NCBI GenBank assembly: GCA_035716005.1
Contig: DASTKG010000143.1
Location: forward strand, 490-64,489
From: Candidatus Eiseniibacteriota bacterium
GTDB taxonomy: Bacteria > Eisenbacteria > RBG-16-71-46 > SZUA-252
DNA length: 64,000 nt
Reading direction: 5' to 3'
The position numbers and the translations under genes were made by a program. The notes under the pieces were generated by a model that made no database searches, was not told the origin of the DNA, and saw only the letters and a list, made by a program, of their open reading frames with translations. This document shows, piece after piece, positions 22,788-51,613 of the stretch (positions are counted from its first letter, which is position 1; each line of letters starts with the position of its first letter).

Positions 22788-22832
22788 CACCGGCGCGGCC
22801 GCGCGAGGCCGCCGCCGGCCACAGGAGGAGCC

Positions 22833-23795: not shown

Positions 23796-23805
23796 AAGGG
23801 AGCGC

Positions 23806-25149: not shown

Positions 25150-26135
<986 letters not shown>

Positions 26136-26139
<4 letters not shown>

Positions 26140-27011
26140 TCACGCCGGAGCTTCTCGCTCAGGTCCGCCGGCTGACGATCCGAAGCCGCCGGGCGGTCGA
26201 GGAGGTTTTCTCCGGGGCGTACCGGAGCGCCTTCCGCGGGCAGGGGCTCGAATTCGCGGAAGTTCGTGAATACGTGCCCGGCGACGACATCCGATCGATC
26301 GACTGGAACGTGACGGCCCGGGCCGGCCGCCCCTTCGTGAAGCGTTTCGACGAGGAGCGCGAGCTGACGGTGATCGTGGCCCTCGACCTCTCGGGATCGC
26401 TCGCGTTCGGCAGCCGCTCTCGCGCGAAGCGCGACGCCGCCGCGGAGGCGGGCGCGCTCCTGGCGCTCGCGGCCGCGCGCAATCGCGATCGCGTCGGCCT
26501 CCTCCTCTTCACCGACCGCGTGGAGCTCTTCCTTCCGCCGGGGAAGAGCCGCTCTCGGGCGCTCCGCATCGCGCGCGAACTCCTCGCGTTCGAGCCGGAG
26601 GGGCGCGGCACCGACCTCGGCGCGGCGTTCGGCTTCCTCCATCGCGTCCTGCGCCGGCGCTCCGTCGTCTTCCTCATCTCCGACTGGCGCGGCGCCGGAT
26701 TCGATCGCCCCCTCTCGCTCCTCGCGCGGAAACACGACGTCGTGGCGCTCGACGTCGCCGATCCGCTGGAGCGGGAGGCTCCCACGCGAGGACTCCTCCG
26801 CGTGCGCGACCTCGAGACCGGCAAGGCGGCCTGGGTCGACGCCTCCTCCCGCGCGGCGCGCGGCGCCTGGCGCGCGGCCGTGGCCCGCCGCGGGAAAGAA
26901 CTCGATCAGACCTTCCGGCGCGCCGGGGTGCCGCGGCTCTCGCTCGACGCGGAACGCGCGGCGGCTCCGGTCCTCATCCGCTACTTCGAGCGCCGCGCGG
27001 CCTCTCGGTAG
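26136..27011 (+). CDS. DUF58 domain protein (VWA-like, MoxR partner)
   Basis: DUF58-typical DIRSIDWNVTAR and VIVALDLSGSL. The start overlaps the moxR stop. Confidence 0.75.
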
Positions 27012-27015: not shown

Positions 27016-28068
27016 ATGCGCGCGCGCCGACTGACTCGCCCGCGCGGAGCGATCGCCGCGGCGTTCGCGTTCGCGGTCCTCGTCCCGGCGCTGGCCGGCT
27101 GCGGCGGCTCGAACGAGGCGGGGAGCGCGCGCGAGCGGGACGAGCAGCGCGCCTACGGCCGCGTGGTGGCGCGAAGCGAAGTCTCGCCGCGCCGCGTCAC
27201 GCTCGGCGATCCCGTCGTCTGGACCCTGACCGCGACCCTGCCGCCGACGAGCGTCCCGGGAGCGGTGCGGCTCGCGCCGGCTCCCGCCACGCTCGAGATC
27301 GTGCCCCGCGGCGAACCGACGATCCGTCCCGCGCGGGGCGCCGTCGTCTGGAGCCGCGTCTACGATCTTCGAGGCTTCGATCTCGGCCCGCTTCCGCTTC
27401 CCGAGGCGCTCCTGCGCGTCAACGTGGGGCGGCCCGGGAGCGTCGTCGTCCGCGACTCGCTCCTCTTTCCGCCCGACACGCTCGCGGTCGATTCGCTCAC
27501 GCCGGCCGCGACCGGCGCCCTCTCGCCCGATCGCGGGCCCGTCGATCCGGGACTCCGGCCGATCGACGTCGCGGTCGCCGTGGGGTTGGCGCTGCTCGTC
27601 GTGGGACTCCTCGTCGCGCTCGTCCTGGCTTGGCGGCGCAGGCGGGCTCGCCCCGAGCCGGCCCTCCCCGGCGAGGCGCCGGAAGCCCCGTTCGCGCGGG
27701 CGCTCGAGTCGCTCCGGCAGGACGGCCCGGCCCTTCCGCGCGACGCGTTCCACGACCGCCTGAGCGACGCCATCCGCCGCTACGTGACCGCGGCGACCGG
27801 CGTCGACGCCATCGATCTCACGACGCGCGAGCTGGAGCGCGAGCTGAGACGCTCGCCGCGCGCCCGCGACGAGGCGGCGGCCGAGGTGGTCCGCATCCTT
27901 CGCCGCTCCGACCTCGTGAAGTTCGCGCGCCGCTCCGACGCGTGGGAGGAGGCGAAGACGCTCCTGGAGGACGCGGCCCGCCTCTCCGGCGCCGTGGCGG
28001 CGGAGCCCGCGCCTGGAGCGGAGCCCGCACCCGCTCCCACGCCCGCGCCCGGACGGGAAGGGACGTAG
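27016..28068 (+). CDS. hypothetical lipoprotein/membrane protein of the Bat-type operon (DUF4381-like position)
   Basis: Lipobox-like LAGCGG signal, an internal TM helix (VAVGLALLVVGLLVALVLAW), and conserved position between the DUF58 gene and batA. Confidence 0.5.
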   Translation: MRARRLTRPRGAIAAAFAFAVLVPALAGCGGSNEAGSARERDEQRAYGRVVARSEVSPRRVTLGDPVVWTLTATLPPTSVPGAVRLAPAPATLEIVPRGEPTIRPARGAVVWSRVYDLRGFDLGPLPLPEALLRVNVGRPGSVVVRDSLLFPPDTLAVDSLTPAATGALSPDRGPVDPGLRPIDVAVAVGLALLVVGLLVALVLAWRRRRARPEPALPGEAPEAPFARALESLRQDGPALPRDAFHDRLSDAIRRYVTAATGVDAIDLTTRELERELRRSPRARDEAAAEVVRILRRSDLVKFARRSDAWEEAKTLLEDAARLSGAVAAEPAPGAEPAPAPTPAPGREGT

Positions 28069-28071: not shown

Positions 28072-29058
28072 ATGCGATTCGCCGCGCCCTGGTTCCTCCT
28101 CCTCCTGCTGCCGCTCCTCGCGGGCTGGCTCCTACGCTGGCGCCGTTCCCGCTGGCGCGAGCCGGAGCTTCCCGTGTCGAGCCTCGCGGCCTTTCCGTCG
28201 CCGAAGGGTTGGAAGCCGCGGATCGCGCCCCTCGCGGGCCGGCTCGTGGCGCTGGCGAGCCTCGCCTTCGTCGTCGCGGCGGCGCGCCCGCAGGCGGGAC
28301 GCGAAATGCGCGAGGTCGTGAGCGAGGGCATCGACATCGTTCTCGCCATCGATCTCTCGGGGAGCATGCGCTGCGAGGACTTCCGGCCGCAGAACCGGCT
28401 CTACGTCGCGAAAGCGGTGGCGAAGGAATTCCTGAAGGGGCGGAAGCAGGACCGGATCGGGCTCGTGGCCTTCGCGGGACGGAGCGAGCTGATCGCGCCG
28501 CTCACGCTCGACTACGACGGGCTCGCGTCGCTCATCGACGGGCTCGATTTCGGGATGCTCCCCGACGGGACCGCGGTCGGCGCGGCCGTGGCGCAGGGCG
28601 CGCAGCGGCTGCGCGAGGCGAAGGGGAAGAGTCGCGTGCTGATCCTCCTCACGGACGGAATCAACAACGCGGGCGCGATCGACCCGATCACCGCGGCGAG
28701 GCTCGCGGCCGCCGTGGGCGTGCGGGTCTACACCATCGGCGCGGGAACGCAGGGGCAGGCGCCCTTTCCCGTCGACGATCCGATCGTGGGACGCCGCTAC
28801 GTCTGGGTCCGATCGGAGGTGGACGAGCCGACGCTCCAGGCGGTCGCCACCGTGACGCACGGGCGTTTCTTCCGCGCGACGACCGCGGCCCTCCTCTCCC
28901 GCGTCTATCAGGAGATCGACAAACTGGAACCGTCGCGCATCGAGACGCGTTCGTATACGCAGTGGGCCGAGGTCGGCCCGATCTTCCTGGCGGCGGGGCT
29001 CGCGCTTCTGGGGCTCGACCTCCTCCTCCGCGCCACGCTGCTCAGGCGGTATCCCTAG
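28072..29058 (+). CDS. batA: BatA-like von Willebrand factor A domain membrane protein
   Basis: N-terminal TM, VWA MIDAS motif DLSGSM and a C-terminal TM. Confidence 0.75.
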   Translation: MRFAAPWFLLLLLPLLAGWLLRWRRSRWREPELPVSSLAAFPSPKGWKPRIAPLAGRLVALASLAFVVAAARPQAGREMREVVSEGIDIVLAIDLSGSMRCEDFRPQNRLYVAKAVAKEFLKGRKQDRIGLVAFAGRSELIAPLTLDYDGLASLIDGLDFGMLPDGTAVGAAVAQGAQRLREAKGKSRVLILLTDGINNAGAIDPITAARLAAAVGVRVYTIGAGTQGQAPFPVDDPIVGRRYVWVRSEVDEPTLQAVATVTHGRFFRATTAALLSRVYQEIDKLEPSRIETRSYTQWAEVGPIFLAAGLALLGLDLLLRATLLRRYP

Positions 29059-29059: not shown

Positions 29060-30082
29060 ATGGGCGGCATGCGCTGGGCGGCTCCCGAGTGGTTCGCGCT
29101 TCTCTGGCTCCTGCCGGTCGCCGCGGCCTTTCTGGTCTGGATCGCGCGCGCGCGCCGGCGGGACGAGGAAGCGCTCGGCGATCCCGCGGCGCTCCGGCGG
29201 CGATGGGGCGCGCCGGGGGCGTGGAGCCCGCTCGTTCGCTCGGCGCTCCTGCTCGGCGCGGTCGCGGCCGCCATCGTCGCGCTCGCCCGTCCGCAGGCGG
29301 GGCTTCGCCTCGTGAGCACGACGAGCACCGGTCCCGACGTGGTGATCGCGCTCGACCTGTCGGAGAGCATGCGCGCGCGCGACGTCCGTCCCGACCGCCT
29401 GGTGGCGGCGCAGCGGGAGATCGCGGCGCTCCTCGCGTCGCTCGAGGGCTCCGGCGTCGGGCTCGTCGGTTTCGCCGGCGAGGCGCGGGTCCTGAGCCCT
29501 CTCACGACCGACGTCGAGGGACTGCGCGATCGGATCGACGCGGCGAGCCCCGAGGAGATGGATATCCCGGGCACCGACGTGGGCGCCGCGGTGGCGCTGG
29601 CGGGCCAGCTCCTGAAACGCCCCGGGGAGCGGCCGCGCGCCATCGTCCTCGTGACCGACGGAGAGCAGCAGGAAGGGGAGATCGCGCGCGGATTGCCGAT
29701 CGTGCGGGCCGCGGGCGCCTCGCTCTTCGTGCTCGGCGTCGGAACGCCCGAGGGGAGTTCCATACCGATCGTCGATTCGACCGGCGCCGTCGTGGGGGTG
29801 AAGCGGGACCGCGCGGGCCGCGAAGTGAGGACGCGCCTGGTGGAGGATGGATTGCGGGAGCTGGCGAGACGCGCGGGCGGGCAGTACGAACGGGCCGACG
29901 GAAGCGGGCGCGCCGGAAGGCACGCCGCGGCCGTCGCGCGCGGGCTCGCGCTCGGAGCCCGCGGGGATCGCGGCGGGCGCTCCCTTCGCGCGTACGACGA
30001 GCGCTTCCACTGGCTCGCGGCGATCGCGGTCCTCCTCCTCGCCGGCGAGAGCTTCGTTCCGCGGCGAAGGGAGGACGCATGA
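29060..30082 (+). CDS. batB: BatB-like VWA domain membrane protein
   Basis: VWA MIDAS motif DLSESM, a BatA paralogue with N- and C-terminal TM segments. Confidence 0.7.
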   Translation: MGGMRWAAPEWFALLWLLPVAAAFLVWIARARRRDEEALGDPAALRRRWGAPGAWSPLVRSALLLGAVAAAIVALARPQAGLRLVSTTSTGPDVVIALDLSESMRARDVRPDRLVAAQREIAALLASLEGSGVGLVGFAGEARVLSPLTTDVEGLRDRIDAASPEEMDIPGTDVGAAVALAGQLLKRPGERPRAIVLVTDGEQQEGEIARGLPIVRAAGASLFVLGVGTPEGSSIPIVDSTGAVVGVKRDRAGREVRTRLVEDGLRELARRAGGQYERADGSGRAGRHAAAVARGLALGARGDRGGRSLRAYDERFHWLAAIAVLLLAGESFVPRRREDA

Positions 30083-30834
30083 CCTCGAAGCGGCGCCGGG
30101 GCCCGGGCGGGATGGGGCGCGCTCCCGTCGAATTCCTCCTGCTCCTCGCGCTCGCGTCGCTCGGCGCGGGCTACGAGTGGGGCGGTCCCGCCGCGCGCGC
30201 GATCCAGCAGCTTCGCGCCGGGAAGTCGCGCGAGGCCGTCTCGTCGTTCGAGGAGGCGAGGCGGGAACGGCCGGCCTCCTCCGCCGTTCGCTACGACCAG
30301 GCGCTCGCGTTCGCCGCCGCCGGCATGGCCGATTCGGCGAGCGCCGCCTACCGCGACGCGCGCGACCTCCAAGGGGCCGCCGGGCGCGCCGCCGCCGCCT
30401 ACAACGAGGGAAACGCCGCCTACCGGCAGGGGAAGATCGAGGACGCCATCGCCGACTACCGCGCGGCGCTGCGGGAGGATCCGAAGCGCGCCGACGCGAA
30501 GCGGAATCTCGAGGAGGCGCTGCGCCGCGCCCGCGAATCGCGCCAGGCGCCGCTCTCGGGGAGCGGCGGAACGCAGGGAGACGGCTCGGGAGGCACGGGG
30601 CAGCGCCAGGGCGGCTCGACGCCCCCGCCGCCGGGCGCGGCGAACGCGCCGAACGATTCGAAGTCCGACTCGAAATCGAAGGATCGTCCCTCGCTCGGCG
30701 CGCCGGCTCCGAATCGCGAGGAGGCGGAGCACTGGCTCGACGCGCTCGAGGCCGAACGCCGCGCGGGACGATCGCGCGAGCAGGCGGCGAAGCGCGCCGC
30801 CTCGAGGGAGGGGAGCGTCGACCGTGACTGGTGA
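30079..30834 (+). CDS. batC: TPR-repeat protein (BatC-like)
   Basis: TPR-like helices (AAYNEGNAAYRQGKIEDAIADYRAAL) and a low-complexity K/S-rich tail. The ATG overlaps the batB stop. Confidence 0.6.
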   Translation: MTSKRRRGPGGMGRAPVEFLLLLALASLGAGYEWGGPAARAIQQLRAGKSREAVSSFEEARRERPASSAVRYDQALAFAAAGMADSASAAYRDARDLQGAAGRAAAAYNEGNAAYRQGKIEDAIADYRAALREDPKRADAKRNLEEALRRARESRQAPLSGSGGTQGDGSGGTGQRQGGSTPPPPGAANAPNDSKSDSKSKDRPSLGAPAPNREEAEHWLDALEAERRAGRSREQAAKRAASREGSVDRDW

Positions 30835-32602
30835 GCGCTCGATCCGGGTCGCGGCGGCCTCGGCGCTCCTCTTCGCGGCGCTCGCGGCGCTCGCGATTCC
30901 GTCGCCCGCGCGGGCGGCGATCATCCAAACCCGGGTGTCGGTCGACCCGCCGGTCGTCATGCTGGGCGAGCCCGTCAACGTCACGGTCACGGTGGAGAGC
31001 GACGGCTTCGCGCAAGCCGAGATCGTCCCTCCCAGTGTGGCGGGACTCTCGATCGAACGCGCCGGAACTTCGCAGAACCTCGTCATGGGCGCGGGGAGCG
31101 TGGTCCGAACCGACGTCTCCGTCTTTCGCGTGACGGCGGCCACGCTCGGGAAGCAGAAGATTCCCTCCTTCGAAGTCGTGTACGACCGGAAGGTCGTCCA
31201 GACCGGCCCGGCCCTCTTCGAGACGGTCTCCTCGCTCCCGAACGCGGGCGCGGCGCCGCGGGGCGGCGATGGGGCCCGGACGCGGCTCTTCGCGAGAATC
31301 GTCGTCGACCGGCGCCACGTCTGGTGGAACGAGCAGATCGTCGCGCGCATCCAGGTCTACTCCCGCTCGCCGCTCGAGGACATGCCGACGTGGGAGCCTC
31401 CCGAGGCGGCCGGATTCTGGAGCGAGCCGCTGGGCGACGCTCGGCACGGCCGCGTGGAGGTCGAGGGCGAGCCGTTCGAGCTCTACGAGCGGATTTTCGC
31501 CTTCTTTCCCACGCGGCCCGGCCGATTGGCGCTCGGGCCCGCGCGCGCGCGCGTCCGGGTCCTTCGCCCGCTCGCGCCCGTCGACGATCCCATCCTGGGA
31601 TTCTTTCCGGGGGCGGCGTCCGAAGTCGTGGAGCTGCCGGTCGAGTCGGCGCCGGTCGACATCGCCGTCGACCCGCTCCCGCGGGGCGCGCCGCCGGGAT
31701 TCCGCGGCGCCGTCGGCCGGCTCGCGCTCGGCGTCCGCGTCGACCGGCCCGCCTCGAGAGTCGGCGAGGCGATCACCGTGTCGACCTCGATCCGCGGCGA
31801 AGGGAACCTCGCCTCCGCCGCCGATCCGACGATCGTCACGCGCCCCGCGGCGCCTTCCTACCCGGCGGGCGCGAAAACCGAATTCGATCGGACCGGCGAT
31901 CGCGTTCGCGGCGTGCGCCGCCGCGACGTCGCCTTCGTGCCCGATCGCCCGGGCTCTCTCCTGGTCCTCCCGATCGAATTCGCCTGGTTCGATCCGGAGG
32001 AAGGGCGATACCGCGTGCAGCGCTCCGACAGCATCGTCGTCCGCGTCTCTCCGGCGAAGGAGGGCGCGGAGGGAGGCGCCGACGTCGCATCGACCGCCAT
32101 GGGAGTGCCGGCGCCGCCGCGGCCCGCCTCACGTGCCGGCGCGGGAGGGCCGCTGACCGGGCTTCCCACGGGCCTTCCGCTCGCCGTCTGGATCCTTTCG
32201 CTGTCGGGTTACGCGGTCGCCGGGGTCGCCGTCGCGTCGAGGCGCCGCGCCGTGCGCGATCCGAAGTGGCGGCGGGCGAGACTCGCCGAGGAGGCGGCGC
32301 GGCGCGTGGACGCCGCGTCGCGCGAAGGGGACGCGGCCCGCGCCGCCGAGCGAACGGAGGCGGCCCTTCGAGACGCGGCCGGGATCCGATTCGGCATCGA
32401 CCCGGAGGGGAGATCGAGACGGGATCTCCTCGAGCGGTTGCGCGCGGCCGGGGTGGGGCCGGAGGAGGTGGAGGAGGTGACGGGGATCCTCGGACGGCTC
32501 GAGCGAGGCGCGTTCGCCCCCGGCGGGCGCGACGACGTCGCGCACGCGATTCGCGAGGCGACGGCGCTCGCCGCGCGCTGGAGGGACGCGTGCCGGAGCT
32601 GA
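30824..32602 (+). CDS. batD: BatD-like protein (oxygen-tolerance family)
   Basis: Signal peptide, a large extracytoplasmic beta-rich region, a single C-terminal TM and a cytoplasmic tail, consistent with BatD architecture. Confidence 0.6.
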   Translation: MTGERSIRVAAASALLFAALAALAIPSPARAAIIQTRVSVDPPVVMLGEPVNVTVTVESDGFAQAEIVPPSVAGLSIERAGTSQNLVMGAGSVVRTDVSVFRVTAATLGKQKIPSFEVVYDRKVVQTGPALFETVSSLPNAGAAPRGGDGARTRLFARIVVDRRHVWWNEQIVARIQVYSRSPLEDMPTWEPPEAAGFWSEPLGDARHGRVEVEGEPFELYERIFAFFPTRPGRLALGPARARVRVLRPLAPVDDPILGFFPGAASEVVELPVESAPVDIAVDPLPRGAPPGFRGAVGRLALGVRVDRPASRVGEAITVSTSIRGEGNLASAADPTIVTRPAAPSYPAGAKTEFDRTGDRVRGVRRRDVAFVPDRPGSLLVLPIEFAWFDPEEGRYRVQRSDSIVVRVSPAKEGAEGGADVASTAMGVPAPPRPASRAGAGGPLTGLPTGLPLAVWILSLSGYAVAGVAVASRRRAVRDPKWRRARLAEEAARRVDAASREGDAARAAERTEAALRDAAGIRFGIDPEGRSRRDLLERLRAAGVGPEEVEEVTGILGRLERGAFAPGGRDDVAHAIREATALAARWRDACRS

Positions 32603-33294
32603 CCCGCGCGGGCGATCTCTACAACGCCGGGAGCGAGGCGCTCGCCAACGGCAATCTGGGCGAGGCGGTCCTCTTCCTTCGCGCGGCGTCGCGGCTCGAG
32701 CCGCGCGCGAAGGACGTGGCGCGGAATGTCTCGATCGCCGAGGCGCGCGTGGCGCTGACGCGCGGCGAGGGACCGACGCGGCTCTCGGGCGGGGGCGGCT
32801 TCGGGCTTTCGAGCGGCGAAGCGTGGCTCCTCGCCGCCCTGCTGATCGCGCTCGGCGCCGCGGGACTGGCGTGGCGCCGCCGGCGCCTCGCGCGGATCGC
32901 CGTTTCGGCCGCCGGCTCGGACGCCCTCCGCGATCCTCGCTCGCTCCTCGCGAGCCGCGTGCTCGACGCCGCGGGGATCGCGGGATTCGCGCTCTCCGCG
33001 TGGCTCGCGGCGGGCGCGGTCATGGAGCGCGTGGCCCCGGAGGCGGTGGTGCTCGATCGATCGCTTCCGCTCACCGCGGCGTCGGGCCAGCCTCTGCCCG
33101 AGGCGCCGGCGCTCGTGGCGGGGGAGCGCGTCCGTCTCGGCGCCGAGCGGGAAGGGCTCGTGGAGATCCGGCTCGGGGGGACGAACGTCGGCTGGGCGCG
33201 CCGGTCGGGCGTGTGGCGGGTGGTCGACGCGTCACGCTATACTCTCCCTTCTTCCACGGATGGGAACGTGCGGCCCGGGAGGACGAATGGATAA
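32590..33294 (+). CDS. batE: BatE-like protein (TPR N-terminus, TM, SH3b-like C-terminus)
   Basis: The GTG start overlaps the batD stop. A TPR-like segment, one TM and a C-terminal beta-rich region are present, in the BatE operon position. Confidence 0.5.
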   Translation: MPELTRAGDLYNAGSEALANGNLGEAVLFLRAASRLEPRAKDVARNVSIAEARVALTRGEGPTRLSGGGGFGLSSGEAWLLAALLIALGAAGLAWRRRRLARIAVSAAGSDALRDPRSLLASRVLDAAGIAGFALSAWLAAGAVMERVAPEAVVLDRSLPLTAASGQPLPEAPALVAGERVRLGAEREGLVEIRLGGTNVGWARRSGVWRVVDASRYTLPSSTDGNVRPGRTNG

Positions 33295-34003
33295 CGAAGC
33301 GACGGCCATCATCACGGGGGGCACGGGAGCCCTCGGCTCCGTCGTGACGCGCTCGTTCCTGCGCGCGGGCTATCGCTCGGCCGTGACCTATCGCGCGTCG
33401 AAGGAGTGGGAGGCGCTGGCGGCCTCGGAGAAGGCGGCCGTCGCGGAGGGCCGCCTCCTAGGATTCGCCGCCGACGTCACCGACGATGCCTCGCTGGAGG
33501 GCGCCGTCGCGTCGGCCGCGTCCGAGTTCGGCCGCCTCGACGTTCTGGTCCACGTGGCGGGCGGCTACGCCGGCGGAAGGACCGTGGAGAACCTCGACGC
33601 GAAGAGCGTGCGGGGCATGATCGACCTCAACCTCGTCTCCGCCTTCTGGGCGGCGAAGCACGTCGTCCCGCACGCCAAGAAGCATGGCCGCGGACGGCTC
33701 CTCTTCATCTCCTCGCGCGGCGCCGTGGAATGCCAGCCGGGCGCGGCGCCGTACGCGGCCGCGAAGCTCGGCCTTCACGCGCTCGTCCAGACGCTGGCCA
33801 GGGAGCTGAAGCGCGACGGCGTGACCGCCCACGCGGTCCTGCCGAGCGTCATCGATACGGCGGCGAATCGGGCCGCGATGCCGGACGGCGAGTTCGGCGA
33901 CTGGGTGAAGCCCGAAGCCATCGCCGAAGTCCTCGTGTTCCTCGCTTCCGAAAACGCCGCGGCGACGTCGGGAGCGCTCGTGCCGATCTATGGGAGGGCC
34001 TGA
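33287..34003 (+). CDS. SDR-family NAD(P)-dependent oxidoreductase
   Basis: TGGTGALG Rossmann motif and a YAAAK catalytic YxxxK. GGGAGG RBS precedes the ATG. It overlaps the batE stop by 8 nt. Confidence 0.8.
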
Positions 34004-35112
34004 TGAGCGACGCCCGTCCGAAGTACCAGAAGGGTCCCCGCATCGCGCCTGAGCCGCTGAAGCCCGGCGTGACCGTCGACCAGCTCGTCGACAGCACCTT
34101 CCTCGCCTACAACGGCGCGCGCTTGCGGGAGGCCTGCCGGCTCCTGGTGGAGCGGATGCTCGAACCCGACGTCACCGTGGGGCTCACCCTGAGCGGCGCC
34201 CTCACGCCGGCGGGCCTCGGACGCTCCTGCCTCATCCCGCTTCTCAAGGCCGGCTTCGTCGACTGGATGATCTCGACCGGCGCGAATCTCTACCACGACA
34301 CCCACTTCGGCATCGGCCTCACCATGCACCAGGGCCACTCGAACGCCGACGACATCGCGCTTCGCGAGCAGGGGATCGTGCGGATCTTCGACATCTTCTT
34401 CGACTACGAGGTCCTTCTCTCCACCGACGCGTTCTTCCGCGAAGTGATGCGGCAGCCCGAATTCCGCCGCCCGATGAGCACGGCCGAGTTCCACCACAGG
34501 GCCGGCCGCTACGTCGCGGAGCGGGAGAAGGCGCTGGGCCAGGTCGAGACCTCCCTGCTCGCGGCCGCGCACGGGCTCGACGTGCCGATCTACACCTCCT
34601 CGCCGGGCGATTCCTCGATCGGCATGAACGCGGCGGCGATCCAGCTCGAAGGGGAGGCGATCCACTGGGACACGTTCCAGGACGTGAACGAGACGGCCTC
34701 CATCGTCTACGGCGCGAAGAAGGTGGGCGGCAAGAGCGCCATCCTCATCCTTGGCGGAGGCTCGCCGAAGAACTTCGCGCTCCAGACGGAGCCGCAGATC
34801 CAGGAAGTCCTCGGGCTCGACGAGGCGGGGCACGACTACTTCCTGCAAGTGACCGACGCGCGCGCCGACACGGGCGGGCTCTCGGGCGCCACGCCCGGGG
34901 AGGCGGTGTCGTGGGGGAAGATCGATCCCGACCGGCTCCCCGACGCGGTGGTGGCGTACGTCGACAGCACCGTCGCGCTTCCGATCCTGACGGCGTACGC
35001 GCTCAGCAAGCGGCCGGCGCGCCCGCTGAAGCGCCTCTACGCGAAGCGCGAGTCGCTCCTTGCGGATCTGAAGGCCGCGCACGCGGAGGCGCGAGCGGCG
35101 GGGACTCGGTGA
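34003..35112 (+). CDS. deoxyhypusine synthase-like protein (DHS/homospermidine-synthase family)
   Basis: Conserved DHS C-terminal active-site motif [10 protein letters not shown] (the catalytic Lys context of eukaryotic DHS) and a glycine-rich [15 protein letters not shown] region. TGATG overlap with the SDR gene. Confidence 0.75.
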
Positions 35113-36257
35113 CCCTCGCTCGGAGAGCGTGGGGCGCCGCGGTCGCGTTCCTCGCGCTGGCGTCGTCGTCCGGATGGGTGCCGAGCGCCGCCGGAGCCCC
35201 CTATCCGCCGTCCCAATTCTGCGGCGCGTGCCACGGTCCGCTCCGGACGCAGTGGGCGGCGTCGGGTCACGCCACGTCGTGGACCAACCCCGTCTTTCAG
35301 GCGTTCCTGGCCCAGGCGACGGAGACGCTCGGCAAGGACGTCCAGGCGTCGTGCATTCCGTGCCACGCCCCGCTGGCGCACGTGACGGGGGACTTGAAGG
35401 TGGACGACGCGGTCGCGAAGGAGGGGGTCACCTGCAACTTCTGCCACAACGTGAGCGCCGTCGATCCCTCGACGAAAGCCGGCTCCTACACGTTCGATCC
35501 GTCGAACCCGAATCTCATGCGCGGACCGTACAAGGACGCCGATCCGGCCGGGGCGCACGAGGCGGTCTATAGCGAGGTCCACACGAAGTCGGAATTCTGC
35601 GCGGCGTGCCACTCCTTCACGCACCCTCGGAGCGGAGTCCTGATCGAGGGGACTTACCTTTCCTGGAAGCGCTCCGGCGGCGCCGAGTACGACATGACGT
35701 GCCAGGAGTGCCACATGCCGCCGACGTCCGGACGCGCCGCCACGGTCACGGAGAAGACGCGCAGCGCCGTCTATTCGCACCTCTTCGCGGGTCCGCGGAA
35801 GGCGCCCGCGATGCTCGACGACGCCGCGGCCATGAAGGGCTCGGTGGCGGGAGGGCGGCTTCGCCTGGAGGTCGAGAACACGAAGGCGGGGCACTCGCTT
35901 CCCGGCGGCGGCAATTCGATGCGAACGATCACCCTCGACGTCGTCTTCAAGAACGCCGCCGGCGCCGAGGTGCAGTCCATTCAAGCCGAGCGATTCGGCA
36001 CCGAGTTCGCCGACGCCGAGGGCGTCTTCCCGGTTCCGAAGTGGAACGCGCATTCGGTCGCGCGCGACACGGAGATCGGGCCCGACTCCTCGCGCGTCGT
36101 TTGGTGCGACATTCCGGCGGGAGCCTCCCGCGCGGACGCCGTCCTCACGTATCACGCGATCCATCCCGCCTATCGAGCGATGCTCGTGAAGCGCGGGGTC
36201 GATCTTTCCGGCCGCGCCCCGATCGTGCTGGCGCGGACCACGGTGACCTTGCCATGA
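35109..36257 (+). CDS. pentaheme c-type cytochrome (periplasmic)
   Basis: Signal peptide and five CxxCH motifs (CGACH, CIPCH, CNFCH, CAACH, CQECH). The GTG overlaps the DHS stop. Confidence 0.75.
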
Positions 36258-37387
36258 GCGCTTCCACCACCGAACGCCCCATTCCGCTTCTCGACCTCGC
36301 CGCCCTCCACCGGCCGCTGACCGACGAATTGCGCCAGGCCTTCGACCGGGTTCTCGCGTCGGGGCAGTTCATCCTGGGGGCCGAGCACGACGCCTTCGAG
36401 CGGGAGCTGGCGGCCGCGTGCGGAACGAAGCACGCCGTCGGGCTCTCCTCGGGCACGTCGGCCATCTCGGTCGGGCTCCAGGCCCTCGGCGTGAAGCCGG
36501 GGGACGAGGTCGTCGTTCCGGCGTTCACCTACTTCGCCACGGCGAGCGCCGTCTATCACGCGGGCGCCACGCCGGTCTTCGCCGACGTGGAGCCGGCGCG
36601 CTTCGGCCTCGATCCGGCCGCGCTCGAGGCGGCGATCACGCCGAGGACGAAGGCCGTCGTCCCGGTTCATCTCTACGGCCTCGCCTGCGATCTCGCCCCG
36701 CTCGTCGAGATCGGCGCCCGGCGGGGGATACCTCTCCTCGAGGACGCGGCGCAGGCGATCGGCGCGACCGACGGCGGGCGCCCCGTGGGGGCGACCACCG
36801 CGGGGGCGACCCTCTCCTTCTTCCCGACGAAGAATCTCGGCGCGCTCGGCGACGCCGGCGCGCTCCTCACCGATCGCGACGACGTGGCCCAGAGAACGCG
36901 CCTCCTGCGCGTCCACGGCGACGCCGGCGACTATCGCCACACGGCGCTCGGCACGAACGCTAGGCTCGACGGACTGCAGGCGGCGCTCCTCCGCGTGAAG
37001 CTTCGCCACCTTGCCGGGTGGACCGAGGCGCGCCGGCGGAACGCGGCGCTCTATCGCGAGGCGCTGGCCGGAACGCCGGTCGTCCTCCCCGTGGAGCCGG
37101 CGGGGGCCGTGCACACGTACCACCAGTTCACCATTCGCGCGCCGCGCCGCGACGAACTCCAGCGGCATCTGAAGGAGAGCGGCATCGCGTCGCGCATCTA
37201 CTATCCGATCCCGGTGCCGGCGCAGCCCTGCTTCGAGGGCGCGGCCGCCGTCGGGAAATACCCCGTCTCCGATCGGCTGGCGGGGGAAGTTCTCTCGCTT
37301 CCGATCGGTCCCGAGCTGACGTCCGAGTCGATCGATCGGATCGCGGGCGCCATCCGCGGCTTCTACGGCGGGGGCGGGGGCTCCTGA
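36254..37387 (+). CDS. DegT/DnrJ/EryC1/StrS-family PLP-dependent sugar aminotransferase
   Basis: LSFFPTKNLGALGDAG PLP-lysine motif and the family N-terminus LLDL..L...L..A...VL.SG. Confidence 0.8.
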   Translation: MSASTTERPIPLLDLAALHRPLTDELRQAFDRVLASGQFILGAEHDAFERELAAACGTKHAVGLSSGTSAISVGLQALGVKPGDEVVVPAFTYFATASAVYHAGATPVFADVEPARFGLDPAALEAAITPRTKAVVPVHLYGLACDLAPLVEIGARRGIPLLEDAAQAIGATDGGRPVGATTAGATLSFFPTKNLGALGDAGALLTDRDDVAQRTRLLRVHGDAGDYRHTALGTNARLDGLQAALLRVKLRHLAGWTEARRRNAALYREALAGTPVVLPVEPAGAVHTYHQFTIRAPRRDELQRHLKESGIASRIYYPIPVPAQPCFEGAAAVGKYPVSDRLAGEVLSLPIGPELTSESIDRIAGAIRGFYGGGGGS

Positions 37388-39870
37388 TGCCGACTCCTTC
37401 GCGTCTCGTCCGCATCGGTCTCATCGCGGCGGGCTCGCTCGTCGGGCTCGTCGTGCTCGTGCTCGGTCTCGCGTACGCGTTCATGCCGCGCGACTGGATC
37501 GACAAGGAGGCGCGGCGGCAAGCGGCGCTGATGAGCGGCGCCGCCGTGAGCTGGAAGAGCCTCGAGCCGGGCTTCGACGGCCTCTCGATCGGCGTCCGGA
37601 TCTCGGGCCTCGCGGTCACGATGCCGAAGCAGGGCGATCCGCGACTCGACCTCCGCGCGAAAGAGGTCTTCGTCCGCTTCCGGATCCTTCCGCTCCTCAT
37701 GCGGCGCGTGGAGATCGCCGCCGCGAAGGTGAGCGACGCGGGAATCGCCATGTGGGATCGGGGCCCGCTGCCGCAGGCGCCGGCCGCGGCGCCGGGAAGC
37801 GCGCCGGGGCCGGGAATGGCCCTCGTCCTGCCGAAGCTCGAGCTGGACGGCATCGACGTCCGGACGCGAGACCTGTTCGGCGGCGGCATCGATCTCCGGC
37901 GGATCCGCGGAACGACCGAGATCGAGGGGACGCTCGACGCTCCGCGGGCGGTCCGCCTCGAGGCGTCCGCGGAGAGCCTCTTCTGGAAGGGCTCGGCGCG
38001 CGATCCGCTCATCGCGCTCCCCTCGCCGCTTCACGCCGACATCGCCATGCGGGGAAGCGGCGGCGCGCTGCCGAAGCTCGACGTGACGCGCGGCGTGGTG
38101 ACGCTCGGCCCGCTGAAGAGCGACGTGAGAGGCTCGGTGACGCTCCCGCCGGCCCCCGCTCCGGCGCGGCTCGATCTCGCGATCGTCGGTGCGCCGCAGG
38201 AGATCCGGTCGAGCGATCCGGCCTTCCGGGGCTTCGCCGCCGCCTCGCCCGCGGCGTGGTCGACGAAGGCCTCCTGGGACGTGAAGATCGCCGGGACGGC
38301 GGAGGCGCCCGTCCAGTCGGGCTCGGCGAAGCTGGCGCCGCTCCAGGTGGAATCGGGGCCGAACAAGTTCGCGCTCGATCAGGTGCGAGCCGACTGGAGC
38401 GTCACGCCCGACAAGCGCTTCACCGCGACGGCCGACGGGAACGGATCGGGCGTCACGCTTCGGCTCGACATGCAGGGATCGACCGAGCCGGGCGGCGAGT
38501 CGAACGGGACCTTCCAGCTCGACGCGCCCGCGACGAGGCTGAACGGGCTCGCGCCGAACACGCCCACCTGGGCGAGCGGCGCCCTCGGTCTTCGCGCGGT
38601 CTTCGTGAATCGCGCCCCGAAGCCGCCGGCGGTCCAGTGGACGCTCCAAGGGCGCGACCTGAGCGGCACCTCGCCCGGCGTTCAGCCTCCCATCAAGCGG
38701 CTCCAGTTCGCGCTCGCGGGCGACATGGAACGCGTCGACGTGAAGTCGCTCGTCGCCACGATCGGCTCCACGACGGCGAACGTCACGGGGAACGTGCTCA
38801 TGGGGAAACCGCTCGGGACGGGCACCTTCACTGTCCGCGTGGACCGGTTCATCGCGGAGGAGTGGTCGCCCCCGAAGGGCGCGGCGCCGGCGACGCCGGC
38901 GGCGGGGAAGGGAGCGTCCGCTGCGCCGCCACCCCCGATTCCGTTCAAGCGGCTCACGGCGGACGTCGCGGTCGGGGAATTGAGGCAGGGAACCATGACG
39001 CTCCGCGACGTGACCGTGCCCGTCGTCTTCGAGAACGGCACGCTCACCATGGCCCCGATTCGGGCCTCGATGGGAACGGGAACGATCGCCGGCGCGCTGA
39101 CGCTGAACGATCTCGTCACGAAGCCCTCCTACGCCGTGAAGCTCGACGTGGTGAAGGCGCCGGTGGACGAACTCGCCCGGGGAATGATCCCCTTCAAGCT
39201 CGGTCTCTCCGGCCTCGTGAGCGGCAACGTCGATCTCGCCGGCCCCGGGCTGCCGGGTCCGGAGGTGAGCGATCAGCTGCGAGGCACCCTCACGGGGACG
39301 GTGGAGCAGGGAAAGATCGCCGAGAGCGAAGGGCTGAAGCAGATTCGCGGCGCGCTGGGGCTCGGGAACACCTCGGACGTCGCCTTCCGGACCCTCTCGC
39401 ACGTTCTTCGGATCGAGGGCGGCCGGCTACTCCTCGACAAGGTCAAAGGCGACCTCGGCGCCGACAAGTTCGAATTGACCGGCGCGCTCGGCATGGACAA
39501 GTCGCTCAATCTGGGCCTCCTCCTCCGGCTCGCGCCGGAGCGGGTGAAGGGGAACAGCACCCTGGCGCAGTTCGCGCGCCTGGCTCGCGACGCGGACGGG
39601 CGCCTGCCGGTCGAGCTCGGGATCGGCGGGACGACGGACGCGCCGAGGGTCCAGTTGAAGGCCGGCAAGCTCCTCGACGTCGCGGGGCAGAGCCTGAAGG
39701 AAGAGCTGACGAAGTCGCTCACGAAGCAGCTCACGCCGAAGACGCCGCCGGCCGCGGCGGACTCGGCGCGCGGGCGAGGCGACTCGGCCGCGGCGAAGCC
39801 CGACAGCGCGAAGCAGGAGGACCCGCTCCGGAAGGAGAAAGAGGCCCTCCGGCGCCTCCTCGGCAAGTGA
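37387..39870 (+). CDS. AsmA-family protein (N-terminal TM anchor, large periplasmic beta-rich domain)
   Basis: TM LVRIGLIAAGSLVGLVVLVLGLAY followed by ~800 aa of AsmA-like low-complexity beta-rich sequence. TGATG overlap with the upstream gene. Confidence 0.65.
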   Translation: MPTPSRLVRIGLIAAGSLVGLVVLVLGLAYAFMPRDWIDKEARRQAALMSGAAVSWKSLEPGFDGLSIGVRISGLAVTMPKQGDPRLDLRAKEVFVRFRILPLLMRRVEIAAAKVSDAGIAMWDRGPLPQAPAAAPGSAPGPGMALVLPKLELDGIDVRTRDLFGGGIDLRRIRGTTEIEGTLDAPRAVRLEASAESLFWKGSARDPLIALPSPLHADIAMRGSGGALPKLDVTRGVVTLGPLKSDVRGSVTLPPAPAPARLDLAIVGAPQEIRSSDPAFRGFAAASPAAWSTKASWDVKIAGTAEAPVQSGSAKLAPLQVESGPNKFALDQVRADWSVTPDKRFTATADGNGSGVTLRLDMQGSTEPGGESNGTFQLDAPATRLNGLAPNTPTWASGALGLRAVFVNRAPKPPAVQWTLQGRDLSGTSPGVQPPIKRLQFALAGDMERVDVKSLVATIGSTTANVTGNVLMGKPLGTGTFTVRVDRFIAEEWSPPKGAAPATPAAGKGASAAPPPPIPFKRLTADVAVGELRQGTMTLRDVTVPVVFENGTLTMAPIRASMGTGTIAGALTLNDLVTKPSYAVKLDVVKAPVDELARGMIPFKLGLSGLVSGNVDLAGPGLPGPEVSDQLRGTLTGTVEQGKIAESEGLKQIRGALGLGNTSDVAFRTLSHVLRIEGGRLLLDKVKGDLGADKFELTGALGMDKSLNLGLLLRLAPERVKGNSTLAQFARLARDADGRLPVELGIGGTTDAPRVQLKAGKLLDVAGQSLKEELTKSLTKQLTPKTPPAAADSARGRGDSAAAKPDSAKQEDPLRKEKEALRRLLGK

Positions 39871-40883
39871 GCGCGCCGGCCAAGGGGCCCGCCATCGAGA
39901 CGGCGGGGCTGACGCGCACGTTCCACACGCGCCGCGAACGCGACGTGCTGGCCCTGCGCGGCGTCGATCTCCGCGTGGAGCGCGGCGAGTGCTTCGGGCT
40001 CCTGGGGCCGAACGGCGCCGGGAAGAGCACCCTCATCAAGATCCTCACGACGCTCCTTCTTCCCACGTCGGGGAGCGCCCGCGTCGCGGGCTTCGACGTG
40101 GCGAAGGAGGCGCTCGCCGTCCGTCATCGGATCAACCTCGTCTCGGGCGGCGACTCGTCGGGCTACGGCATTCTCACCGTGCGGGAGACGCTCCACCTCT
40201 TCGCGCGCTTCTACGGCGTGCCGTGGCCCGAGGCGAAGCGGCGCGCCGAGGAGCTGATGGAGATCACCGGGCTCGGTCCCAAGGCCGACACGCGGATGTC
40301 GGGGCTCTCCACGGGAATGAAGCAGAAGGTGAACTTCGCGCGCGGGTTCATGAGCGACCCCGAGATCGTCTTCCTCGACGAGCCGACCCTCGGTCTCGAC
40401 GTGGAGGCGTCGCGGGCCATCCGGAGCTTCATCGCGCGTTGGGTGCGGGAGCGCCCCGATCGCACGGTGCTCCTCACCACCCACTACATGGTGGAGGCGG
40501 ACGAGCTCTGCTGGCGCGTCGCCATCATCGATCACGGGAGGATCCTCGCGCTCGACACGCCGCGCGCCCTGAAGCGCGCGCTTCCCGAGGAAACGGTCTT
40601 CGTCCTCCACCTCGCCGCGCCGCCGCCCGCCGGCTGGGACGCGGGGATCGGGGGGATCGAGTCGGCGATCCATCAGACGCACCCGGGGACGGGCGGAACC
40701 GAGCTTCGGGTCACGCTGCGCGAGGATCAGGTGATCGGGGAGATCCTCGGCGCCTTCCGCCAGCGCGACATCGAGGTGCTCGATCTCACGAAGCACGAGC
40801 CGACCCTCGAGAGCGTCTTCGTGAATCTGGTCGGGCGCGGGCTCGACGAGGCGGACGCGCCGGAGGCGGAGGCGCGCGCGTGA
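39867..40883 (+). CDS. ABC transporter ATP-binding protein
   Basis: Walker A GPNGAGKST, ABC signature LSTGMKQKV and Walker B VFLDEPT. The GTG overlaps the AsmA stop. Confidence 0.85.
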   Translation: MSAPAKGPAIETAGLTRTFHTRRERDVLALRGVDLRVERGECFGLLGPNGAGKSTLIKILTTLLLPTSGSARVAGFDVAKEALAVRHRINLVSGGDSSGYGILTVRETLHLFARFYGVPWPEAKRRAEELMEITGLGPKADTRMSGLSTGMKQKVNFARGFMSDPEIVFLDEPTLGLDVEASRAIRSFIARWVRERPDRTVLLTTHYMVEADELCWRVAIIDHGRILALDTPRALKRALPEETVFVLHLAAPPPAGWDAGIGGIESAIHQTHPGTGGTELRVTLREDQVIGEILGAFRQRDIEVLDLTKHEPTLESVFVNLVGRGLDEADAPEAEARA

Positions 40884-41716
40884 GCCGCGAGCCTCGAACG
40901 TTCGCCGACGTCCTCCGGATGAACCTCGGCGCGGTGACGGCCCGCGCGAGCGTCCGCATGGTCGCGGCCTTCCGCGAGCGTTCCTGGCTCTTCGGAGAGA
41001 CGGTCTTCCCGTTCCTCTCCATGTCGACCTTCGTGCTCGTCTACCGGGGGCTCCACGCGCCGCCCGCGTTCGAGGCGTTCGCCGTGCTGGGGGGCGCCAT
41101 GATCGCGTACTGGAACAACGTCCTCTGGAGCATGGCGAGCCAGTTCTTCTGGGAGAAGGAGCAGGGGCAGCTTCAGCTCTATCTCATCACTCCCGTCTCC
41201 CGCATGTCGATTCTCCTCGGCATGGCCCTCGGCGGCATGCTCGCCACGACGACGCGCGCGATCGTGATCCTCGCGGCCGGACTCTGGATCTTCCACGTCC
41301 CGTTCCCGCTCGAGCGGGTTCCGGCCGCGCTCGGTCTCTTCGTGCTCACGCTCGGCGCTCTCTACGGACTCGGCATGATCCTGAGCAGCGTATTCCTGCT
41401 GTGGGGACGCGAAGCCTGGAACACGGTCACCCTCTTCCAGGAGCCGGTCTATCTCGCCTCGGGCTTCTACTTCCCGGTCCGAGCGCTCGGCACCTTCGTC
41501 GCCTCCGCGGCGGGGCTGATCCCGATCACGCTCGGTCTCGACGGCATCCGCCAGATCTTCTACGGCGAGGCGGCGCGGGGCTTCCTGCCCCTCGCGTGGA
41601 TCGTGCCGATCCAGGCCGTGCTCCTCGTTCTCTATCTCTTCCTCGCGCACCGCGCGCTTCTCACGATGGAGAACCTCGGCAAGCGGGAGGGGAGGCTCAC
41701 GATTCGTGGCGGCTGA
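40880..41716 (+). CDS. ABC-2 type transporter permease
   Basis: Six predicted TM helices of the ABC-2 exporter family. The GTG overlaps the ATPase stop. Confidence 0.75.
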   Translation: MSREPRTFADVLRMNLGAVTARASVRMVAAFRERSWLFGETVFPFLSMSTFVLVYRGLHAPPAFEAFAVLGGAMIAYWNNVLWSMASQFFWEKEQGQLQLYLITPVSRMSILLGMALGGMLATTTRAIVILAAGLWIFHVPFPLERVPAALGLFVLTLGALYGLGMILSSVFLLWGREAWNTVTLFQEPVYLASGFYFPVRALGTFVASAAGLIPITLGLDGIRQIFYGEAARGFLPLAWIVPIQAVLLVLYLFLAHRALLTMENLGKREGRLTIRGG

Positions 41717-42575
41717 CGGCGGGGGATTCGGCCTGAAGCGGATGTGGGAGACGATGCGCGCCGGAGCGTGGATCGGCTGGCAGGTGGAGGCCAACTGGGC
41801 CGATCCGTTCCTCTTCCTCGTCTTCGCCATCGCGAAGCCGCTCTCGACGACCCTCATTCTCTATCTCATGACGAAGGTCGTGTCGGGCGGCGCCGTGACG
41901 CCCGCCGCGTTCCATCAACTCTTCATCGGGAACACCTTCTTCCTCTACGTGACCGAGGTCTTGATCGGCATCTCGTGGGCCGTCTTTCGCGATCGCGAGG
42001 ACTACGAGACGATGAAGTACATCTACACCTCGCCGATCCGCTTCCTCCACTATCTCCTGGGGCGGGGACTGACGAAGGTGGCGACGGCGTCGATCGGCAT
42101 CGCCTGCGCGCTCGCGTTCGGCGCCCTCGTTCTCGGCGTCCCGCTCCGTCACGACCCGGCGACGCTCGCCAAGCTCCTCGCCGTCACCATCGTCGGGCTG
42201 GTCGGCGTGATGTGGCTCGGCGTCTCGTTGGCGGGGATCTCGCTCGTGGTGGCGCGTCACAGCATCACTCTGAACGAGGGACTGAGCGGCGTCTTCTACC
42301 TGCTCTGCGGCGCCGTCTTCCCGATCGACGTCCTGCCGAGCTTCGCGCAGCGAATTTCCCTCCTGCTGCCGTTCACCTACTGGCTGGAGCTCCTGCGCAG
42401 AGTCCTGACGGGGATTCCGTACTCGGGGGCCTTGCGGGGAATGGACGACGCGGCGCTCGGAACGATCCTCGTCGCGACCACGCTCGCCACGATGATCGGG
42501 GGCTATCTCTGGTTCTCGTGGTGCGAGCGGACGGCGCGGGCTCGCGGCCTCATCGATTGGAAGTCGAACTACTGA
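41706..42575 (+). CDS. ABC-2 type transporter permease (second subunit)
   Basis: Polytopic membrane protein paralogous to the upstream permease. An alternative ATG lies at 41742. Confidence 0.7.
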   Translation: MAADGGGFGLKRMWETMRAGAWIGWQVEANWADPFLFLVFAIAKPLSTTLILYLMTKVVSGGAVTPAAFHQLFIGNTFFLYVTEVLIGISWAVFRDREDYETMKYIYTSPIRFLHYLLGRGLTKVATASIGIACALAFGALVLGVPLRHDPATLAKLLAVTIVGLVGVMWLGVSLAGISLVVARHSITLNEGLSGVFYLLCGAVFPIDVLPSFAQRISLLLPFTYWLELLRRVLTGIPYSGALRGMDDAALGTILVATTLATMIGGYLWFSWCERTARARGLIDWKSNY

Positions 42576-42591: not shown

Positions 42592-43098
42592 TCAGGCCGT
42601 GCTGCGAGTCGCCGACTTCTTCCCGCCGCGGAGCGTTCTCCCGAGGAAAACGTTCAGCGGGTGGCTGCGCGGCAGAATCGGCAGCACCGGGGGACGCCGC
42701 ACGCCGAGTTTCCGGAGCGCGTCGTGCGCGGCGTCGTAGCTCGGATTCCACGAGAGCGCCTGGTTGAACGACTTGATGGCATCGGGCTTCCGGCCCGCCA
42801 GGACGTAGACCTCGCCCAGGTTGTAGTAGTGCTCGGGGCGATGGTACTCGGCCTCGATGGCGCGCCGGCAGAGCTGCTCGGCGTCGCTGTACTTCCGCTG
42901 AGCGTGGGCCGTCGCCAGCCCCAAATAGCTCAGGTATCCCTTGGAGTGCGGTTCGAGAACGACCGCCTCCTGGAAGTGCGTGAGAGCGTCCTGGTAGCGG
43001 CAGGCGTAGAGCATACGGACCCCCGACAGGAACTCCTCGTGGCCCATGGCGCCCACGACGGCGATCTGGCGCTGACGGCGCTGCCTCGGACTGATCAT
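42592..43098 (-). CDS. TPR-repeat protein
   Basis: TPR-like helices (YNLGEVYVLAGRKPDAIKSFNQAL). The preferred start is the internal Met (MISPRQ) preceded by GGGAGGAAA. The track ORF extends to 43131. Confidence 0.6.
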   Translation of the reverse strand: MISPRQRRQRQIAVVGAMGHEEFLSGVRMLYACRYQDALTHFQEAVVLEPHSKGYLSYLGLATAHAQRKYSDAEQLCRRAIEAEYHRPEHYYNLGEVYVLAGRKPDAIKSFNQALSWNPSYDAAHDALRKLGVRRPPVLPILPRSHPLNVFLGRTLRGGKKSATRSTA

Positions 43099-43299
43099 GG
43101 CGTATTTCCTCCCGTCCCATTCATGTCGCAAGGGGCGTGCCGGGGATGGCGAGAGGGGAGGGTATTTTAGGGTTTCGTCAACCCTATGGAATCATTGGGG
43201 TTGAAGGCTGGGTCACCAGGTGCCCTTCGACGAATCGCGCGGAGCCAAGAACTTCTTGCCACGCCGGGATTGCGTCTTGTAACGTAGAAACACGGGGGC

Positions 43300-50094: not shown

Positions 50095-50111
50095 GTCGCC
50101 GCTCGCGACGC

Positions 50112-51464: not shown

Positions 51465-51613
51465 CCTTCCCGTCGGCCGGGACTAAGGGTCTGTGCGTCC
51501 AGATATCTCGATGAGCGAGTCAGTCCGTGCATCGGGGAATAAGGCCGTCCGCCGGGCGCCGGCGCCAACCCAGACACGCCGCGGGACCGACGGACGGCCG
51601 TTCCGAATCCTGC

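Follow-up and report, generated by a model that had tools for sequence, protein, structure and literature searches.

An extended Bat locus in Eisenbacteria, probably a lineage-specific mixed-function supraoperon

The Bat operon and the eight genes that follow it

The window analysed here is the whole 64,000-nucleotide (nt) stretch of contig DASTKG010000143.1 (assembly GCA_035716005.1, Candidatus Eiseniibacteriota bacterium), with a G+C content of ~70%. On its forward strand it carries a Bat operon whose last gene, batE, is directly followed at the 3' side by eight further genes (33287-42575, +), all joined by overlaps of 1-11 nt according to the junction sequences. From the start of moxR (25150) to the last stop codon (42575) the array measures 17,426 bp and comprises 16 genes (moxR-DUF58-batA-E plus the eight), in line with the ~17.4 kb and 16 genes, continuous with moxR-DUF58-batABCDE, proposed in an earlier sequence-only reading of the same DNA. 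The genes are the following:

25150..26139 (+): moxR, MoxR-type AAA+ ATPase, first Bat gene (Pfam AAA_3, 212 bits; AAA_lid_2)
26136..27011 (+): DUF58/VWA protein (Pfam DUF58, 237 bits), overlapping moxR by 4 nt
27016..28068 (+): membrane protein between DUF58 and batA, in the usual DUF4381 position (weak Pfam DUF4381/DUF5671)
28072..29058 (+): batA-like VWA membrane protein (Pfam VWA, 67.5 bits; weak BatA N-terminal domain)
29060..30082 (+): batB-like VWA membrane protein (Pfam VWA_2, 74.7 bits; weak BatA N-terminal domain)
30079..30827 (+): batC-like TPR protein (Pfam TPR_2, TPR_16)
30824..32602 (+): batD (Pfam BatD, 42.8 bits against a cut-off of 24.1)
32590..33294 (+): batE-like protein, assigned by position and a weak TPR match; GTG start, 13-nt overlap with batD
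33287..34003 (+): classical short-chain dehydrogenase (SDR), FabG-like (Pfam adh_short, 139 bits)
34003..35112 (+): speY, deoxyhypusine synthase (DHS)-like homospermidine biosynthesis protein (diagmatine synthase; Pfam DS, 225 bits)
35109..36257 (+): periplasmic pentaheme c-type cytochrome with a C-terminal Ig-like domain, of the PHC / T. tepidum c552 type (five CXXCH motifs and a signal peptide)
36254..37387 (+): DegT/DnrJ/EryC1 pyridoxal phosphate (PLP)-dependent sugar aminotransferase (Pfam, 378 bits; PLP-lysine motif SFFPTKNLG)
37387..39870 (+): AsmA-like protein, predicted inner-membrane-anchored bridge-like lipid-transfer protein (827 aa)
39867..40883 (+): ABC-2 exporter ATPase, DrrA-like (Pfam ABC_tran, 99 bits; DrrA1-3_C)
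40880..41716 (+): ABC-2 permease 1 (Pfam ABC2_membrane, 34.7 bits)
41706..42575 (+): ABC-2 permease 2, last gene of the array (Pfam ABC2_membrane, 39.4 bits)
42592-43131 (-): convergent TPR gene after the array

The TAA stop codon of batE (33292-33294) and the ATG of the SDR gene (33287) generate an 8-nt overlap, so the stop/start overlap claimed for this junction is confirmed. All the later junctions had been described as overlaps of 1-4 nt. This proved correct for the six that were listed, namely TGATG between SDR and speY (34001-34005), GTGA between speY and the cytochrome gene (35109-35112), ATGA between cytochrome and DegT (36254-36257), TGATG between DegT and AsmA (37385-37389), GTGA between AsmA and the ABC ATPase (39867-39870) and GTGA between the ATPase and permease 1 (40880-40883), but not for the junction between the two permease genes, missing from that list, which is an 11-nt overlap if permease 2 starts at GTG 41706. 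In a frame plot of the G+C content at third codon positions (GC3), plus-strand coding was unbroken from ~22.8 to 42.6 kb, with frame switches coinciding with the gene boundaries of the sequence-only reading. GC3 plot, junctions and Pfam matches agree on the existence of the eight genes, on their close coupling and on their direct continuation of a canonical Bat operon, and the family assignments stand on the Pfam matches and the five CXXCH motifs, the AsmA match being partial and below its cut-off. Because stop and start codons overlap and no spacers are present, we infer that co-transcription and translational coupling of the array are likely. Scans of the 24.5-44 kb region were uninformative in this respect, as promoter-like sites were zero and terminator-like sites showed no excess over the level of shuffled sequence.

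The canonical Bat order is present (moxR, DUF58, membrane protein, two VWA, TPR, BatD), with moxR being 82-96% identical across related loci. The membrane protein downstream of DUF58 has one visible transmembrane segment and its position is kept in all of those loci. The batE-like reading frame was confirmed by GC3; its product gave no Pfam or NCBIfam match and no recognisable SH3 domain, and in BLASTP against a TPR+SH3 BatE of the out-group defined below it aligned in the TPR part (E 1e-5), the SH3 part giving no significant match. The arrangement is the same as in the batI (aerotolerance) operon of Bacteroides fragilis and its homologues in Spirochaetes, Francisella and Bacteroidota, all having moxR, DUF58, a small membrane protein, two VWA, TPR, BatD and a TPR-type last gene. 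Unlike in the batI-type operons, batE overlaps here the next gene and eight more genes follow, an extension found only in Eisenbacteria; unlike the TPR+SH3 BatE of the out-group, the BatE found here is without a recognisable SH3. A further parallel is the 11-ORF (open reading frame) bat array of Leptospira biflexa (PMC3557215), where the Bat genes are likewise part of a larger tandem series that also holds unrelated genes, htpG among them. In that case, however, own promoters were shown for downstream genes, and the gene content differs from the Eisenbacteria locus, which is known here from sequence alone. In Leptospira, the stress/aerotolerance phenotype of Bat is disputed (PMC3557215).

Products of the downstream genes

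The best NCBIfam match of the SDR was FabG (187 bits), below the cut-off of 288. The following gene had been presented as a bona fide deoxyhypusine-synthase homologue. The DS domain and the catalytic lysine (WGK, in a segment aligning with REAISWNKIRP of the archaeal DHS 8put) are indeed conserved, but the protein passes the NCBIfam equivalog NF001980, "homospermidine biosynthesis protein" (547.5 bits against a cut-off of 450), whereas the archaeal and eukaryotic DHS models and the Thermus model NF002699 all remain below their own cut-offs. By sequence, the "DHS" of 33287-42575 is SpeY, and agmatine coupling is a predicted activity taken from homologues. SpeY homologues from diverse phyla couple two agmatines into N1,N9-bis(guanidino)homospermidine, which is then converted towards homospermidine by a ureohydrolase or an iminohydrolase (2026 JBC, PMC13625781). 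Known SpeY proteins (NF001980; PMC13625781, PMC10981699) have in common with this one the equivalog score, the DS domain and the catalytic lysine, but their genes usually, although not obligatorily, neighbour those for arginine decarboxylase and for agmatinase/DUH or AIH, while here speY lies between the SDR and the cytochrome genes. Eisenbacteria probably make homospermidine by the SpeY (agmatine) route. In two loci labelled Gemmatimonadaceae (L004/L005, 9162-11191) speY was found to overlap by 4 nt an upstream LOG/"Lysine_decarbox" gene, a conserved partner differing from that in Eisenbacteria.

The cytochrome, ~380 aa in length, has an N-terminal signal peptide, as judged by inspection, and CXXCH motifs at residues 38, 82, 109, 164 and 198, which are invariant in 36 homologues. 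Its AlphaFold model (pLDDT 83) retrieved 5ze8 as the top Foldseek match over the full length (E 5e-23, TM 0.68/0.67), and a weak NCBIfam match to ExtKL was also found. The Thermochromatium tepidum c552-type fold belongs to the PHC family, together with Geobacter ExtKL and cable-bacteria sPHC (PMC11976967), and the fold match of the model to 5ze8 places the Eisenbacteria protein in the same family. With c552 (5ZE8) and PHC members (Geobacter ExtKL, Gsu2801, cable-bacteria sPHC) it shares the five CXXCH motifs, the ~380 residues and a pentaheme domain followed by a C-terminal Ig-like beta-sandwich. The identity with 5ZE8 is only 21%, and this orthologous group occurs only in Eisenbacteria and is always encoded 3' of the bat genes, while distant relatives have other neighbours.

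The closest solved relatives of the DegT protein are 7b0d, DesV (2oga), QdtB and WbpE (E 4e-94 to 1e-79), mostly sugar aminotransferases, 7b0d being a glutamine-scyllo-inositol transaminase. None of the NCBIfam equivalogs (PseC, ArnB, WecE and others) was reached, with PseC for instance at 215 bits against 423. Pairing of the SDR with DegT as GnnA/GnnB-like enzymes for a 3-amino sugar was considered and not adopted, the SDR being missing in three loci that retain DegT; moreover, GnnA is a member of the Gfo/Idh/MocA family, different from SDR.

The AsmA-like protein matched Pfam AsmA only partially (22.9 bits, below the cut-off of 29.8), many of its orthologues carrying a precomputed PF05170 match. 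In the model, an N-terminal membrane anchor is followed by a long beta-groove that matches bridge-like lipid-transfer proteins. It would thus be akin to AsmA-like/TamB/YhdP proteins and to eukaryotic Vps13 and BLTP1, with the differences that it is below cut-off for Pfam, is 827 aa long and has orthologues only in the Eisenbacteria lineage. A second member of the AsmA superfamily, TamB (Pfam TamB, 77 bits), is encoded at 10371-14369 (+), directly after BamA/Omp85, so that a stretch of 30 kb of this genome encodes two or more bridge-like lipid-transfer proteins. As to the exporter, the ATPase scored 285 bits with TIGR01188 drrA, below the cut-off of 312. An apparent 865-aa fusion of AsmA with the ABC ATPase (P0293, L069 10001-12598), which could have served as Rosetta-stone evidence, was rejected as a frameshift artefact of an error-rich contig.

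Recurrence, cassettes and flanks

Scanning of species-representative genomes with a profile of the cytochrome led to 56 loci. Among the loci examined, those with a cytochrome identity of 47% or higher come from ~25 species, nearly all labelled Eisenbacteria, and up to the contig ends every one of them has the Bat genes on the 5' side of the cytochrome gene and DegT and AsmA on its 3' side. On Eisenbacteria contigs, the neighbourhoods of SpeY and cytochrome homologues show an identical order running from glyA-moxR to the ABC genes. An independent metagenome scan was anchored on BatA, with an in-group (BatA at least 69% identical) and an out-group (BatA 42-50% identical). Wherever an in-group locus continues beyond batE, the downstream genes are present up to the end of the contig (L073, L074, L083, L085, L086, L096, L097, L101, L103 and L105). 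To the question raised by the sequence-only reading, whether the set recurs in other genomes and does so next to batE, the answer is therefore positive for many genomes, and the eight genes cannot be said never to be co-localised elsewhere; the recurrence is, however, confined to one phylum. Four loci labelled Latescibacterota, Binatia, Limnocylindrales or Dormiibacterota (L019, L025, L029, L041) also carry the full syntenic array, with SpeY 83-86% and MoxR, where covered, 82-84% identical to the window; mislabelling or mis-binning of Eisenbacteria contigs is the probable explanation. The arrangement was not found described in the literature searched, and none of the listed titles and abstracts on Eisenbacteria addressed it, in agreement with the earlier statement that it was undescribed. 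The extended Bat locus appears to be new; all its genes belong to known families, and it occurs in an uncultured phylum of soil and groundwater.

Outside this lineage the genes part company. SpeY reaches ~70% identity in loci labelled Gemmatimonadaceae, Planctomycetes and Binataceae, where its neighbours are unrelated, and at the loci of remote AsmA homologues no adjacent ABC-2, DegT or cytochrome genes were found. The out-group Bat operons end at a TPR or TPR+SH3 BatE, after which unrelated genes begin and the downstream module is absent. In two of the three out-group loci examined, a gene for an LPG_synthase_TM (lysyl-phosphatidylglycerol synthase/flippase-like) membrane protein lies 3' of batE (L111 15412-16383; L115 15878-16888); this gene could be one that recurs beside Bat operons and has a link to envelope lipids.

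The position of the cytochrome raises the question of whether the MoxR/VWA Bat complex matures it or works with it in the periplasm, the other genes being passengers. This could take the form of a chaperone-client relation, as in other MoxR-VWA systems, or of the delivery of reducing equivalents to the periplasm. MoxR-VWA pairs are maturation factors for redox enzymes, and in all the in-group loci the cytochrome gene is found 3' of the Bat genes with only SDR and/or speY in between. The idea also fits the original Bat hypothesis, reducing power for the periplasm, as summarised in PMC3557215, and an independent, conserved adjacency is known from Tenderiales, where batABD adjoins the multihaem uet cluster (ccsAB-nrfG-batABD; bioRxiv 10.1101/2022.05.06.490989). 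The resemblance concerns Bat VWA/BatD genes beside multihaem cytochromes, but in Tenderiales, which belong to another phylum, these are undecaheme and triheme, and the block is without SpeY, DegT, AsmA, ABC genes and a full moxR-batA-E. Against a coupling, none of the other 17 genes, moxR and bat included, was found at the 33 distant loci of PHC-type cytochrome homologues (22-34% identity), and no ORF with at least three CXXCH motifs in the 39 out-group Bat loci (361 kb), where a general association of Bat with multihaem cytochromes was looked for and not found. Furthermore, SDR and speY do intervene between batE and the cytochrome, and the synteny of the whole region weakens any inference from adjacency. 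Overall, a Bat-cytochrome coupling appears quite unlikely.

Within the lineage, the array is not invariant. Locus L011 (9285-11161; ENA ERZ25039492 contig_14241, 2.14 Mb) has the array without speY, the SDR stop and the cytochrome start overlapping by 1 nt, and is a natural "deletion", all the other genes of the array being kept although the DHS-like one is missing. No SDR gene is present in L038, L041 and L101. In L013 (14699-16311; cytochrome 79% identical) all three ABC-2 genes are absent while DegT and AsmA are kept, and the AsmA-like gene abuts the convergent TPR gene, followed by PTS-EIIA and Zn-ribbon genes. In eight loci an inserted gene for an M1-family peptidase (~3 kb, ~970-1010 aa) separates the AsmA-like gene from that of the ABC ATPase (L001 16068-18971; L012 14638-17673, where it overlaps the AsmA-like stop by 4 nt; L020, L030, L032, L033, L038 and L041). 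Since speY, SDR and ABC genes are absent in some loci and the M1 peptidase is inserted in others, the genes of the array behave as separable cassettes.

The flanks are also conserved, with ilvE-glyA upstream in every locus reaching that far and the convergent TPR, PTS-EIIA and Zn-ribbon genes downstream in all the loci reaching them. Because these flanking housekeeping genes are as syntenic in the phylum as the array itself, the conserved order does not show functional linkage; at this phylogenetic depth gene order is conserved regardless of function. Nor are the tight junctions distinctive, because plainly unrelated neighbours in the same window overlap likewise (uvrD/gatC by 11 nt; gatC/gatA, gatA/gatB and gatB/purD by 4 nt each) and the ilvE-glyA-moxR spacings are of 10 and 24 nt (24 nt for glyA/moxR). 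The overlap criterion of the sequence-only reading would thus stretch its "unit" far upstream into housekeeping genes.

The window contains other gene groups. A co-directional run of unrelated housekeeping genes with many stop/start overlaps occupies 6936-25125 (+) and encodes RseP, BamA, TamB, UvrD, GatC, GatA, GatB, PurD, a small ORF, Sua5, LMW-PTP, an IlvE-like protein and GlyA. A probable lipopolysaccharide-core heptose block with 4-14-nt overlaps is found at 117-3757 (+), with a PfkB-type kinase, a cytidylyltransferase-like protein and two family-9 heptosyltransferases. Two DcaP-like outer-membrane porins, a glutaminase and an amidohydrolase are encoded at 48487-55171 (-), and a DUF883 / holin-X-like pair at 58004-58801 (+).

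These observations bear directly on the model offered as one possibility by the sequence-only reading, in which the eight genes are one pathway to an aminated or polyamine-modified envelope molecule, with a step coupled to periplasmic redox and with export or outer-membrane insertion of the product. Spelled out, the model would involve oxidation by the SDR, amination by DegT, a DHS-type aminobutyl transfer, redox coupling by the cytochrome and export or insertion by the ABC and AsmA proteins, the whole being functionally tied to Bat. The coupling is tight at all junctions and the set recurs together beside batE across the phylum; SDR and DegT are plausible as an oxidise-then-aminate pair, and envelope transport is the predicted task of both the AsmA-like protein and the ABC-2 pump. 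However, the flank synteny and the generic overlap of genes account for the tight arrangement. The DHS-like protein was identified as SpeY. Every SpeY homologue that has been tested, from a range of phyla, homocouples agmatine (PMC13625781), and relatives ~70% identical to the Eisenbacteria protein occur in phyla without the module. SpeY, SDR and ABC genes are each dispensable in some loci, an unrelated M1 peptidase enters the array, the three anchors followed outside the lineage (SpeY, cytochrome, AsmA) never occur with the other genes, and out-group Bat operons are without the module. Because the "DHS" is SpeY, a known homospermidine-pathway enzyme, a polyamine-modified envelope molecule need not be invoked, and nothing specific supports such a pathway, with SpeY identity and cassette indels counting against it. 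We regard the single-pathway model, both as a whole and in its proposed series of steps, as highly improbable.

A more restricted proposal is that DegT, the AsmA-like protein and the ABC-2 proteins (plus the M1 peptidase where present) cooperate, with no part for Bat, SpeY or the cytochrome, in making an amino-sugar-bearing lipid or glycan and in moving it to the outer membrane. DegT, AsmA and ABC genes are contiguous, with 1-4-nt overlaps here and in most loci, the one-ATPase/two-permease ABC-2 arrangement resembles lipid or glycolipid exporters of the DrrABC and NodIJ type (NCBIfam and, in part, general knowledge), and the predicted lipid-bridge fold of the AsmA-like protein is consistent with such a role. 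Yet L013 retains DegT and AsmA without ABC genes, the M1 peptidase splits AsmA from ABC in its eight loci and the remote AsmA homologues are not beside ABC-2 or DegT genes. In addition, Pfam and NCBIfam models revealed neither a glycosyltransferase nor a sugar-nucleotide dehydratase in the array. A partial envelope module, acting independently of the remaining products, is accordingly possible but doubtful.

A probable mixed-function supraoperon

Since cassettes come and go, the flanks are equally syntenic and unrelated genes overlap alike, the array is most likely a mixed-function supraoperon. In our view it is probably lineage-specific and co-transcribed, joining a canonical Bat operon to separable cassettes of known families with a loose envelope theme. 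From the annotations we infer that its products would work in different compartments and most probably serve separate processes. In the cytoplasm, SpeY would condense two agmatines into N1,N9-bis(guanidino)homospermidine on the route to homospermidine, and the FabG-like SDR would be a putative dehydrogenase. The periplasmic pentaheme cytochrome, of the T. tepidum c552 / ExtKL type, would serve as a low-potential electron carrier. DegT may aminate a keto-sugar for a glycoconjugate, the AsmA-like protein, anchored in the inner membrane, may be a lipid conduit bridging the periplasm, and the DrrAB-type ABC-2 pump may export an amphipathic or glycan substrate. The common theme would be at most the cell envelope, and the locus a mosaic of cassettes in a very compact genome and not one biosynthetic pathway.

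Several observations weigh against this interpretation. Each of the in-group loci has the cytochrome-DegT-AsmA trio 3' of batE, also those in which the identities of BatD, BatE and AsmA have fallen to 34-45%, and such constancy could be due to selection for co-expression with Bat and not to inertia. The junction between SDR and speY is a 1-nt overlap almost everywhere in the lineage, and a Pfam scan of the ORFs called in the 64-kb window revealed no SpeY partner (ADC, agmatinase/DUH or AIH). In addition, Tenderiales, an unrelated lineage, keep batABD beside a multihaem cytochrome cluster (bioRxiv 10.1101/2022.05.06.490989). Finally, a product shared by the SDR, DegT, AsmA-like and ABC proteins is possible.

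As the evidence stands, the array mostly shows that, where genomes of uncultured phyla are compact and high in GC, neither overlapping junctions nor synteny within the phylum say much in favour of a shared pathway. For Eisenbacteria, the annotations gained are the SpeY route, a pentaheme cytochrome of the T. tepidum c552 / ExtKL type and a lineage-specific AsmA-like protein. A further and rather improbable scenario is that the Bat MoxR/VWA complex has been recruited into redox-linked envelope maintenance, maturing or docking the periplasmic, putatively low-potential pentaheme cytochrome and working with an AsmA-like lipid bridge and an amino-sugar-modifying enzyme. If this were true, the conserved array would point for the first time, from genomic data, to the targets of Bat proteins, and would back the old idea of Bat supplying periplasmic reducing power. 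The function of Bat operons has been a question since 1999, and the phylum-wide, gap-free extension with a cytochrome and putative envelope transporters could hint at their clients.

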